64,000 nucleotides of DNA from Escherichia coli O127:H6 str. E2348/69 (GTDB lineage: Bacteria; Pseudomonadota; Gammaproteobacteria; Enterobacterales; Enterobacteriaceae), in NCBI RefSeq assembly GCF_000026545.1, contig NC_011603.1. One strand, written 5' to 3'. A program made the position numbers. Positions 24,001 through 27,000 of the stretch are shown in pieces; position 1 is the stretch's first letter; every line of letters starts with the position of its first letter.

Positions 24001-27000
24001 AATAATAAGTGGCGATACCGATTACGTGACGTTCTGGTCGTGCTGAATAAACATTCGTTATTCGGAATTTTTTTAATCTTTTTCGGATTTAAATTCCTAT
24101 TGATGAACCTCCTTATTGAGAGAGTTTAAGAAACAATGTTTGCGCCTGGCTTTTTGATGGCTTAAAACCATGGTGAATATAAAACTGTTTTGCGTTTTCC
24201 GTAAGTGCATGAACCATAATTGCACGCACACCTGTATTTTCGGCCACTCTGTAACAACGACAAACCGCATCATGCAGTAAATCCGCACCAAGTCCTTTAC
24301 CACGGAATGACGCATCAACAGCCAGGCGTGCAAGTATAATGACAGGGATGGGGTCAGGCATATTGCGCCGAAGATTGCCTGTAGCTTCTGTATGGTTGAC
24401 ACAGCCAGTAGCCAGTGAGTAAAAACCGACTATTTGTTGTGTTCCTTTCCTACATACAACAAAAGTCCGGGTAGCTCCGAGAGCCTGATTTTTTAGCCCC
24501 TTCTGCTTTAACCAGTCATCAAGAACAGCTTCACCGCTGACAAATTCAGCGACCTGATGAAATGAGGATAAAAAACTATAGATATTCACATTGTTGATAA
24601 AAATAGTGATTATGATACTTTTGACTTCCGTAATATTATTTTTGAACATTACACCAATGAGATGTTTATAAGCTTTGATAATCAAGGAGGATTTGTTATA
24701 TCAATATTAAATAATGCTACAAGTGAAACGGCAAATATTAATGTGCTCCGAAAAAACATGACTTCTTTAGATAGTAGTGGTTCATTAATATATTTGCCTG
24801 GTGGTGATGTTTATCATATTTCAGATATCTATAAAATGTCCAGAGGTAGAAAATTGTTTAAATTAAATGTAGAAAAGAAACCTGACATTGATGATATCAT
24901 CAACGTGGCTATTTTAGAAACTTCTTATCTACAAATAAAAAAACCAATAATGATGATAGTGATTATATTTTATGTTTAGACACCCCTAACCTCTCATCTT
25001 ACACATTGAACTTTAATGACTTGTCTGGATACATATCAAGTTTATGGGATAATATTAGGGGTAGTTTTACTCCTTTTCATAATAATACTGTAAACATCGC
25101 CCCTAATGAAAAAAATATATTTCCCTAATCGGATTTGATAAGTTGTCATTCAATATTGATGTTTTTAGACAAGCATTAGAGGTAAAAAATAAGAATAGTT
25201 ACAAGATAAGTAAATTTACATGGGAAACGTATGGTGATATCGTTGTATCACCTGAAGATAGAATTTCTCATCTGGAGTTAGATGGGTTTAATTATTTTTC
25301 ACACCCCGAGTTAGATACTCCAATATCTGACTCATTTTCATATTTATATGATAATTTTCAGATCGTTGATAGTGATGTGCATATTAAGCTTCTTCATCTC
25401 AACAGAGAAACAAAGCAAATAACACCACATCGTATTATTCTTAAAAGATACTTTATAGACTCATTTGCTAAAACAAGTATCACTGACAGAGAAAAGAATA
25501 TATATCCTGTGATTTGTGATTCACCTGATCACTTCACAAGCGACATATATAGGCATCCATTTAGAATAGTTCTCGGGAATAAGTCATTGTATCCATCAGA
25601 AGAACTTGTAAAATTCATAAGCACCTCAAAAGAATATTTAAGCAATATGGATATGATTAACAATGTTATTGTTCCTCAAAAAACAACAAAGAAAAACAAA
25701 TTATCCATAGTTAGTTTAAATAGCAATATCAAAAATGATATTGTATTGTCCGGAGTAATGACCGGAACATCAAAGATTTTTCATCTAAATAATTCAGGTG
25801 ATTTATTGTTAACAACCTCAAAAACTCATGGTGGTGGGGTTGTGGTTATTTTTAAAGATTTTATAAATAACTGGTGGAAATATAATCTTACTTTAATAAC
25901 AGTTCCTATTGATAATAAATTGTCAGACAATAGGATAAATATAACCCCAATGGGGATAAAGATACAGGAAACAGTCAATGGAAATGACAGGTTGTTTTTT
26001 TACCCTACTCCATTAAAAAATGGAAGTTTTATCTTGCATAATCCACTTTACTCTAACTCATTCCCTTCTTTATATTCACATGAATTATTTGATTTGATTG
26101 AAGCATATAGAAATCCAACGTATTCGTATTTACAGAACAATATTATCAATAGATATATACATACTGTTTCTGAGTATACTGGAAAAGACGGTGTTGCCAA
26201 TATGTCATTATCTATATATGCATACTCGACATGTCGTTTCTGGTCAAAAGAAAGTGTGGCTGTAGGAGATACAATAAAATTGTCTAATTATGAGCATGTT
26301 GAGTTTAGCTTTAATTCATTTAGTAAGGATTACTTTCGTGAACAAAATAGTGATATATATAAAATATTTTTTAAAATTGCTTCTTCGAGTAATTCGGTTG
26401 TTGTGGATAAAAATACGCTCACTCAAAAAAACCTCCTCGAAAACAATACATTTTTCAGTATTACAGGTATAGATGAGTCTCTCTATGAAAAGCATATAAT
26501 CTTTATCACTCTTAAGGTTATTGTCCCCTCAAAAAAGTAGCGCTGATTTCCTGTATGCGGAATTTGCTGACTAATCTTACCCAGCGCAGACGTTCCAAAG
26601 GCCACGACATACTTCGCGAAACGCCTGAAATGAATTATGTCTTTATTGAACTGATTTCAGCATCAAGACAATGTACCGCGCGCTCAGGGGGAGGGGGCCG
26701 CATCGGCTGGTATATGTGGTGTCAGTGGCGGATAAGGATAAGTACACGTCGGCAGTTCCGTCAGCACTGCGACAGCGTTGTCCTCGTTGCTTTTACCCGG
26801 TCATGCACAACGCCTGATGGATGAACTGCGTGCCCAAGGTTACCATTTTAAAGTAAAAACCGTGACGGAAAGCCTGCGCCGTCACGGACTGAGGGCAAAA
26901 GCATCCTGGAATTTCAGTCCGGTCTGTTACTGCGCACACAGCCAGCCTGTGTCAGAAAATCTGCTGGAGCAGGATTTTTACGCCAGTGGCCCGAACCAGA

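Follow-up and report, generated by a model that had tools for sequence, protein, structure and literature searches.

A tacT-type GNAT toxin gene fused to an antisense toxB leader on the EPEC virulence plasmid pMAR2 is probably a silent relic

The virulence plasmid pMAR2 of EPEC E2348/69 carries, adjoining per/bfp, an open reading frame (ORF) which is listed in RefSeq by PGAP as WP_000584256.1, "GNAT family N-acetyltransferase", i.e., as an ordinary intact enzyme. This raises the question whether the ORF encodes a working acetyltransferase, a toxin or the remainder of a toxin-antitoxin (TA) module. In the 64-kb stretch of pMAR2 analyzed here, called the window and used for all coordinates, the first-pass annotation had described the ORF as a TacT/AtaT-type toxin gene with a replaced 5' end and without antitoxin, being either a decayed TA remnant or a toxin domain kept for another role. 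The entry is in reality a chimeric, pseudogene-like relic with 38 codons antisense to toxB. With a probability of roughly 0.8 we regard it as the silent relic of a plasmid tacAT module, beheaded by replacement with a toxB-flanked block; a relic of this sort is ordinary. The features of the region are:

22792..24108, plus strand: IS91-family element, consisting of a frameshifted transposase pseudogene (22792-23916) and the right end
24113..24685, minus strand: chimeric ORF, 190 aa, TTG start, in which TacT residues 10-161 carry a foreign N-terminal leader of 38 residues
24113..24572, minus strand: tacT', the 3' 460 nt (codons 10-161 and stop) of a plasmid-type tacT
24566..24578, no strand: tacT'/toxB' junction within an A-run, GGATAAA followed by AAACTATAG, with at most 3 nt microhomology
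24573..24685, minus strand: foreign in-frame leader, 24% GC, antisense of toxB'
24572..26540, plus strand: toxB', a frameshifted 3' fragment comprising the final ~1.97 kb of a toxB/lymphostatin-family gene, in PGAP a "DUF3491 domain-containing protein" pseudogene
26541..27283, no strand: IS debris (IS3-family and IstB-like); pO157 has syntenic DNA downstream of its toxB
29608..30143, minus strand: intact relE / phd-yefM TA cassette
30252..30290, no strand: backbone boundary, hairpin GATGCCGCGYCAGCGGCAT

The larger part of the ORF is a TacT-type toxin, as had been proposed. The intact 161-aa plasmid TacT matches the window by tblastn with 152 of 152 residues identical (E=3e-104), hybrid residues 39-190 being residues 10-161 of the intact protein, and tacT' differs from tacT of p542099_1 by a single synonymous change. 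The intact homologue matches the Salmonella TacT structures 5FVJ, 7F36, and 7AK8 with E values near 1e-90; the window ORF itself is identical to the 5FVJ Y140F sequence at 130 of 152 residues and to wild-type TacT at 131 of 152 (~86%). A GNAT fold with an acetyl-CoA-binding motif is recognized by Pfam (Acetyltransf_7 1.2e-10, Acetyltransf_10 6e-9, Acetyltransf_1 2.2e-6, over the 190-aa ORF) and by AF2, which models the core at pLDDT 70-86 in a GNAT-like beta/alpha order. As judged from sequence identity to the solved TacT, the fold of tacT' is settled. The residues needed for TacT toxicity are K33, K36, R77, R78, R91, A93, Y140, K146, and R158 (PMC4942678). They sit at hybrid positions +29, and all are retained apart from R158, which is Lys in the chimera; this retention counts against reading the ORF as a relic.

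An alignment, suggested earlier as a way to count the missing N-terminal residues, gives nine only, MGCVTAPEP (26 nt), and leaves the toxicity residues in place. The ORF is nonetheless not a complete TacT, residues 1-9 having been replaced by 38 unrelated ones, and family members conserve the lost segment MGxVTAPEP: among 32 homologues, G2, P7, and P9 reach at least 90% conservation. N-terminally His-tagged TacT was reported to be functional (PMC5959882), so that an N-terminal extension alone need not inactivate the toxin, which again counts against a relic. The AF2 models of the chimera and of the native toxin are both of low confidence (mean pLDDT 63 and 57, respectively), and the leader is left unmodelled (pLDDT <50).

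The replacement of the 5' end by unrelated AT-rich DNA that happens to be in frame was borne out at the nucleotide level: DNA homology to ~170 intact tacT genes ends at 24572, and across this position GC falls from 45% in the toxin part to 24% in the leader. As the plus strand from 24572 rightwards is the toxB 3' fragment, which matches pO157 toxB at 95-98% identity between ~nt 7526 and the stop codon, the first 38 codons of the ORF are antisense toxB. They encode a hydrophobic peptide (GRAVY 0.78). In the antisense register of toxB', 5 of 30 runs reach at least 42 codons, hence an open frame of this kind is unremarkable, and gene callers add 38 codons up to the TTG simply because it happened to be open.

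Toxins of this type normally follow a DUF1778 antitoxin gene, and this is true of the intact relatives, in which the DUF1778/TacA gene is always present and overlaps the toxin start by 13 nt; in four intact modules a palindromic operator region of ~85 bp lies upstream of tacA. On pMAR2 this promoter/operator region is absent, and the DNA directly upstream of tacT' is antisense toxB, not an antitoxin gene. The absence of an antitoxin on either side holds for the whole window, where tblastn with the cognate TacA found no DUF1778/TacA gene (best E=1.6). Likewise, E2348/69 is absent among the matches listed when tacA is searched by blastn in distant mode against 5426 complete E. coli genomes; only six of the 81 matching records are chromosomes, all of other strains. 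An intact GNAT-RHH pair of the KacT/AtaT clade does exist on pMAR2 (record 77219-78022), 626 bp outside the window and ~24.7 kb from the chimeric ORF around the circle. Its antitoxin is 25% and its toxin 28% identical to the tacAT type, and since this KacA-like antitoxin is so divergent, distant, and paired with its own toxin, it is not a nearby cognate that would contradict the earlier description.

The loss goes back to one rearrangement in the ancestry of the EAF plasmids. It joined tacT nt 27 to about nt 7526 of toxB, and the whole of tacA with its promoter/operator disappeared together with the initial 26 nt of tacT. No IS terminus is found at the tacT'/toxB' junction. pO157 matches window positions 24572-27283, while p542099_1 matches 24108-24572 and 27086-28058, the latter stretch lying also ~0.84 kb upstream of the intact tacA on that plasmid; the IstB-like debris adjoins toxB on pO157-type and tacAT on p542099_1-type plasmids. 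This three-way synteny of pMAR2, pO157, and p542099_1 supports, from aligned sequences, a replacement, and a simpler model, in which 5.7 kb had been inserted beside repA, was revised in its light. The event was presumably a replacement recombination that substituted a toxB-flanked block for the 5' part of tacAT, with an illegitimate junction likely at its left end and a homologous crossover in the IstB-like debris likely at its right end. The p542099_1 and pO157 matches are the reason why the right-hand breakpoint was moved to the IS debris: the debris at 26541..27283 is the probable site of homologous crossover, and the interval ~27086-27283 within it is the more likely position of the breakpoint.

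On the other side of the ORF, the right end of the IS91-family element meets a GTTC at 24105-24108 on the minus strand, 5 nt past the tacT stop codon. Further to the right, the hairpin GATGCCGCGYCAGCGGCAT and the DNA onward are common to >5000 F-type plasmids, and it is this boundary which the tacA promoter/operator abuts in tacAT plasmids. On pMAR2 the relE / phd-yefM cassette fills the RepFIIA-adjacent slot where other F-type plasmids carry tacAT, making tacAT and yefM-relE alternative cassettes at one boundary beside the RepFIIA replicon. An Rfam search over 21000-33000 returned CopA at 32050-32141 and no other RNA family.

What remains for expression was assessed from start sites and promoter-like motifs. 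The native tacT has an anti-SD duplex of -5.4 kcal/mol in addition to translational coupling to tacA. Among the candidate starts of the chimera, TTG 24685 and GTG 24589 (GTG33) have no SD (+0.6 and +2.6 kcal/mol, respectively), and ATG 24649 (ATG13) has a weak GGTG (-2.8 kcal/mol). Promoter-like sites are not enriched (8 versus 6.1±3.0 in shuffles). One sigma-70-like site matching at 10 of 12 positions runs from 24842 to 24813 on the correct strand, 128 nt upstream, and counts against a relic. No published annotation or expression evidence for the pMAR2/pMAR7 ORF was found in the literature searched. By the sequence, the N-terminal nonapeptide, the tacA promoter, the coupling to tacA, and the SD have all been lost. 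The remnant is probably not expressed at a meaningful level, and the plasmid would tolerate it without antitoxin because it is presumably unexpressed, having lost these signals and the conserved N-terminus. Were the protein made and folded, TacT-like activity would be expected: acetylation of Gly-tRNAGly at its amino group, using acetyl-CoA, and hence a block of translation.

The tacT'/toxB' junction recurs in other EAF plasmids, and their comparison also speaks to the fate of the ORF. The ORF is uninterrupted, with an identical protein, in ~24 contigs from the lineage of E2348/69 and DEC1/DEC2, which counts against a relic; at 0 to 1 nt, the divergence of these intact copies is too low to gauge selection. 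In B171-type plasmids, which share the junction, an IS3-family insertion is accompanied by deletion of codons 119-190, whereas p90-9133_1 and E128010 have a 1258-bp IS inserted at codon 111, together with a 3-bp duplication. Loss of the ORF is tolerated in these two sister EAF-plasmid lineages, and the remnant, intact in one lineage and IS-broken in the B171-type and 90-9133/E128010-type ones, appears to drift neutrally. The 82-aa protein P0012 from DEC1B/DEC2B, starting at M109, was considered as a further decayed copy and rejected: the DNA (L020) carries the full ORF with one synonymous change, so that the short protein reflects a difference in gene calling and not decay. Of the two possibilities left by the first-pass annotation, the decayed TA remnant is favored by the IS disruptions in two lineages together with the loss of the promoter/operator and the coupled ribosome-binding site.

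The main competitor of a silent relic is an active orphan toxin, which we consider unlikely. Here a chance promoter within the AT-rich antisense toxB sequence would drive low-level production of the chimera, or of a product starting at ATG13 or GTG33, and this protein would acetylate Gly-tRNAGly; it would be restrained by peptidyl-tRNA hydrolase (Pth), an enzyme able to detoxify acetyl-aminoacyl-tRNA, or by cross-neutralization through the KacA-like antitoxin, and it may aid growth arrest or persistence. The whole conserved core from residue 10, with its toxicity and catalytic residues, and the promoter-like site at 24842 to 24813 are consistent with such a role, and so is the report that Pth counteracts GNAT toxins (PMC9177977). 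A usable SD, translational coupling, and the conserved nonapeptide are missing, however, the leader is hydrophobic and modelled at very low pLDDT, and two sister lineages have the ORF disrupted by IS elements. As to restraint, pMAR2 does encode an intact TacA-family antitoxin, and one case of GNAT-RHH cross-neutralization is described between antitoxins only 34% identical (PMC9431474); the pMAR2 antitoxin shares just 25% identity with the cognate TacA, belonging to another clade, and Grabe et al., as cited in PMC9431474, reported no cross-protection among three Salmonella TacAT pairs. The more specific proposal that the beheaded TacT is made in the EPEC1 lineage as an antitoxin-less low-dose toxin, with promoter and start codon arising by chance in the antisense toxB sequence, held back by Pth or the KacA-like antitoxin and aiding growth heterogeneity or persistence, is less probable still.

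Domestication, i.e., a toxin domain kept for a non-toxic role such as lysine acetylation of a virulence protein, appears very improbable. It would fit the intact catalytic core and the virulence-plasmid location beside per/bfp, and a GNAT toxin (AtaT) is claimed to acetylate EspB in EHEC (PMC7957018). Against it, the protein shows zero substitutions relative to p542099_1 TacT, a bona fide TA toxin (100% identity), and thus bears no mark of neofunctionalization; dedicated expression signals are absent, and the IS-disrupted B171-type and 90-9133-type plasmids are still typical EPEC plasmids. A housekeeping GNAT merely resembling a toxin is refuted. No TacT-specific NCBIfam model was matched, and the only NCBIfam matches are weak: ArsN2 scores 27.4 bits where its curated cut-off is 125, and RimI 16.5 bits where it is 86.4, both far too low. 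The identity to the characterized TacT is 86%, and DUF1778 accompanies the toxin in all intact close homologues.

The silent relic of a tacAT module being the preferred reading, the ORF should be counted neither as a TA system nor as a metabolic acetyltransferase in inventories of pMAR2 and EAF plasmids. The locus is an example of the safe loss of a TA module, with promoter, antitoxin, and toxin start gone in one event. Should the remnant be expressed, against the odds, a TacT-type toxin would be present unguarded in the prototype EPEC strain, which would be moderately interesting for work on persistence.

Several known systems frame this locus. The clade D toxins TacT, TacT2, and GmvT target almost only Gly-tRNAGly (PMC9177977). 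GmvT of the Shigella sonnei GmvAT module on pINV is likewise plasmid-borne, but it is not an orthologue: its termini, read from cloning primers, are MEINVTA... to ...FYKV, unlike MGCVTAPEP... to ...LKLPQ of the native tacT type and the Shigella protein P0018. An equation of 76 Shigella plasmid matches with GmvT was dropped in view of these published primers. The KacT/AtaT-clade module of pMAR2 belongs to the same GNAT plus TacA-family superfamily as tacAT. Its toxin has KacT (5ZGN) and AtaT (6GTS) as best PDB matches, and as the clade differs, cross-neutralization by its antitoxin is not expected. The characterized Salmonella Typhimurium TacT (T8/STM3651; 5FVJ, 7AK8, 7F36) is ~86% identical over residues 10-161, with the same acetyl-CoA-site residues A93 and Y140 and the same tRNA patch of K33, K36, R77, R78, R91, and K146. 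Unlike this chromosomal toxin, the plasmid-borne pMAR2 ORF lacks residues 1-9, carries a 38-residue foreign leader, and is without tacA, operon promoter, and operator. Also close are the intact tacAT modules that F-type plasmids of E. coli and Shigella carry (p542099_1, CP091385.1; p1RM8082; NZ_CP062879.1; Shigella flexneri P0018), whose DNA is 92-99.8% identical over 24108-24572 and which, in contrast to pMAR2, have a 161-aa toxin, a 94-aa DUF1778 antitoxin with the 13-nt overlap, and a palindromic operator. TacT of p542099_1 is 100% identical to the pMAR2 ORF over 152 residues. The neighborhood in these plasmids is related to that on pMAR2: downstream of the module lies an IS91-family element, and upstream there is either IstB-like debris or the RepFIIA backbone.

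The stretch from 23900 to 25200 of the window is 100% identical to pMAR2 of EPEC E2348/69 (NZ_CP059841.1) and likewise identical to pMAR7 (NC_010862.1), a marked derivative of pMAR2. On the 96.6-kb pMAR2 circle the window runs from record position 78648 to 96603 and then from 1 to 46043, and it carries a 1-bp indel versus NZ_CP059841.1 somewhere upstream of 23900 (the offset differs by 1 nt across 1–23899). The following features are relevant:

24113–24685, minus strand: the ORF, 190 aa, TTG start; PGAP WP_000584256.1, "GNAT family N-acetyltransferase"
One flank of the ORF: IS91-family transposase, frameshifted (PGAP)
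Other flank, overlapping the ORF on the opposite strand: "DUF3491 domain-containing protein" pseudogene (PGAP)
29608–30143, minus strand: yefM-relE cassette, adjoining the RepFIIA backbone (boundary 30252–30259)

The IS91-family element terminates at GTTC, 5 nt past the tacT stop. Between per and this element, an intact 192-aa "PilW family protein" ORF with a weak Bundlin (PF05307) match (21677–22255, minus strand) lies isolated in IS debris. The CopA antisense RNA of the RepFIIA replicon is found at 32050–32141 on the plus strand (Rfam RF00042, 102.5 bits), as expected for the backbone.

Pfam detects GNAT domains in the ORF. In about 170 plasmids from E. coli and Shigella the similarity (92–99.8% DNA identity) is confined to window 24108–24572, every inspected match being a 486-bp GNAT gene located behind a 285-bp DUF1778/TacA gene with a 13-nt overlap. 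In protein and DNA alignments, hybrid residues 39–190 correspond to residues 10–161 of the intact toxin, and they show 100% protein identity with one synonymous nucleotide difference to the toxin of p542099_1, a plasmid with intact tacAT; residues 1–38 are unrelated to the toxin and stand in place of the native MGCVTAPEP. Among solved structures, the intact toxin finds Salmonella TacT (5FVJ, 7F36, and 7AK8) with E-values near 1e-90, and the ORF is identical to wild-type TacT at 131 of 152 positions. It retains A93, Y140, K33, K36, R77, R78, R91, and K146 and has Lys for R158; substitutions at these positions weaken or eliminate TacT toxicity (PMC4942678). Judged by its sequence, the ORF originated as a genuine TacT-type toxin of clade D, whose members target Gly-tRNAGly (PMC9177977), in agreement with the first-pass annotation, which had named a TacT/AtaT-type toxin. 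A housekeeping-type acetyltransferase, named there as a refuting outcome, is rejected because the NCBIfam ArsN2 and RimI matches stay sub-threshold. Only nine N-terminal residues are lost relative to TacT; these are conserved in 32 homologues (73–96% identity), and the AlphaFold2 models, in which the leader has a pLDDT below 50, are too weak to assign them a role.

Toxin homology ends at 24572, and from there rightwards the plus strand is 95–98% identical to pO157 toxB, beginning ~7526 nt into the roughly 9.5-kb gene and ending at the toxB stop at ~26540, so that the ORF's leader is read antisense to a 3' fragment of toxB. Its GC content is 24% vs 45% in the tacT part, which bears out the earlier description of a 5' end replaced by unrelated AT-rich sequence in frame. 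The junction lies inside an A-run (GGATAAA/AAACTATAG) with microhomology of at most 3 nt, and no IS end was found in the junction sequence. The antisense frame is open for 42 codons, which only 2.5% of shuffles reach, but it needs no special explanation because, among the 30 open runs that the actual antisense toxB fragment has in this register, 5 reach or exceed this length.

The exact 190-aa protein is present on about 24 contigs, and all inspected ones are E2348/69 or DEC1/DEC2-series EPEC assemblies with a constant neighbourhood (per genes, IS fragments, bundlin-like gene, IS91, tacT', toxB', IS21). Other EAF plasmids have the same tacT'/toxB' junction with a broken ORF. In B171-type plasmids an IS3-family element accompanies a deletion of window 24294 to 23855, which takes out codons 119–190 including Y140; in p90-9133_1 a 1258-bp IS is inserted at 24353–24355 with a 3-bp duplication, and the E128010-type protein ends at the same codon as this disruption. 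The junction is thus old and common to EAF plasmids of the EPEC1 and EPEC2 types, which evidently tolerate a destroyed ORF. A metagenome scaffold (ERZ28648085, 164–744) holds a further copy of tacT whose 100% identity begins exactly at the pMAR2 breakpoint, with native upstream sequence and ~87 bp extra inside the gene versus pMAR2.

Three tacAT plasmids have the promoter/operator region of tacA (~85 bp) directly beside a hairpin (GATGCCGCGYCAGCGGCAT) and backbone equal to window 30252 onward. This region contains a palindrome, TATATCATTTGCT...AGCAAATGATATA, presumably the TacA operator, which is absent from pMAR2; in four compared tacAT stretches (L002, L003, L023, L024; alignment A5) it is perfect and located between tacA and the backbone hairpin. 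The backbone from 30252 is common to more than 5000 F-type plasmids, at least 554 of which hold yefM-relE in this slot like pMAR2, and this suggests an exchange point at the RepFIIA boundary for alternative TA cassettes (tacAT, yefM-relE). In p542099_1, the closest tacT relative, ~0.84 kb separates tacAT from IS debris that corresponds to window 27086–28058, and pO157 is collinear with 24572–27283 (toxB 3' end, IS3 fragment, IstB-like fragment), the two homologies overlapping at 27086–27283. The simplest model from this synteny is a two-step replacement: a toxB-flanked block would have entered a tacAT-bearing ancestor by homologous crossover in shared IS debris, and an illegitimate join of toxB to tacT at the other end would have completed the loss of tacA with its promoter and of 26 nt of tacT. 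Loss of tacA would be survivable since the expression signals went together with the antitoxin. At the 3' side, conserved tacAT DNA stops within ~8 nt past the toxin stop in five plasmids (24105–24115 vs the same four stretches), a very sharp cassette edge and repeated IS landing site, beyond which IS91 (pMAR2), IS1, IS4, or unrelated sequence follows. An IS91-family element 84–91% identical to that at 22397–24108 lies in the same orientation ~430 bp downstream of intact tacAT in L023 (NZ_CP062879.1, 332–2078), which hints at an older linkage of tacAT with IS91-family elements.

The absence of a flanking antitoxin, as first read, was confirmed: tblastn with the cognate TacA found nothing in the 64-kb window, and the tacA gene matched 81 records by blastn among 5426 complete E. 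coli genomes, E2348/69 not being among those listed and the six chromosomal matches all coming from other strains. Elsewhere on pMAR2 an intact GNAT and "TacA family antitoxin" pair (176 and 89 aa; record 77219–78022, L005:32220–33023) is located 626 bp outside the window on its position-1 side, at a distance of ~24.7 kb from the ORF along the circular map, adjoined by a degraded vapBC, with ccdAB further along. This pair belongs to the KacT/AtaT clade and differs from the tacAT type, its antitoxin being 25% and its toxin 28% identical. Cross-protection appears unlikely by analogy, because it was reported absent among three Salmonella TacAT pairs and the sole reported exception concerns two Klebsiella pairs with antitoxins 34% identical (PMC9431474).

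Translation signals of the ORF look poor, with anti-SD pairing energies of +0.6 (TTG1), −2.8 (ATG13), and +2.6 kcal/mol (GTG33), whereas native tacT has −5.4 kcal/mol plus coupling to tacA. Promoter-like sites are not enriched, though the correct strand does have one site with a 10/12 match, 128 nt upstream. The main rival, an expressed orphan toxin, would draw on this match and on the retained residues, and two further points speak against full inertness: TacT with an N-terminal His tag stays functional (PMC5959882), and Pth can detoxify GNAT-toxin products (PMC9177977). We nevertheless regard this rival as improbable. The ORF does not qualify as a functional module, since it lacks a DUF1778 gene upstream, an operator, a cognate antitoxin in trans, and a complete N-terminus, and we judge it, with a probability of roughly 80%, to be a chimeric TA relic that is most likely silent. 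Between the two readings left by the first-pass annotation, a decayed TA remnant or a domain kept for another role, the former is favoured by the IS-broken junction in other EAF plasmids and by the loss of the promoter/operator and of the coupled ribosome-binding site. Objects of this kind are known, and the plasmid is well studied; the locus is of value for correcting the annotation and as a clean example of TA-module loss.
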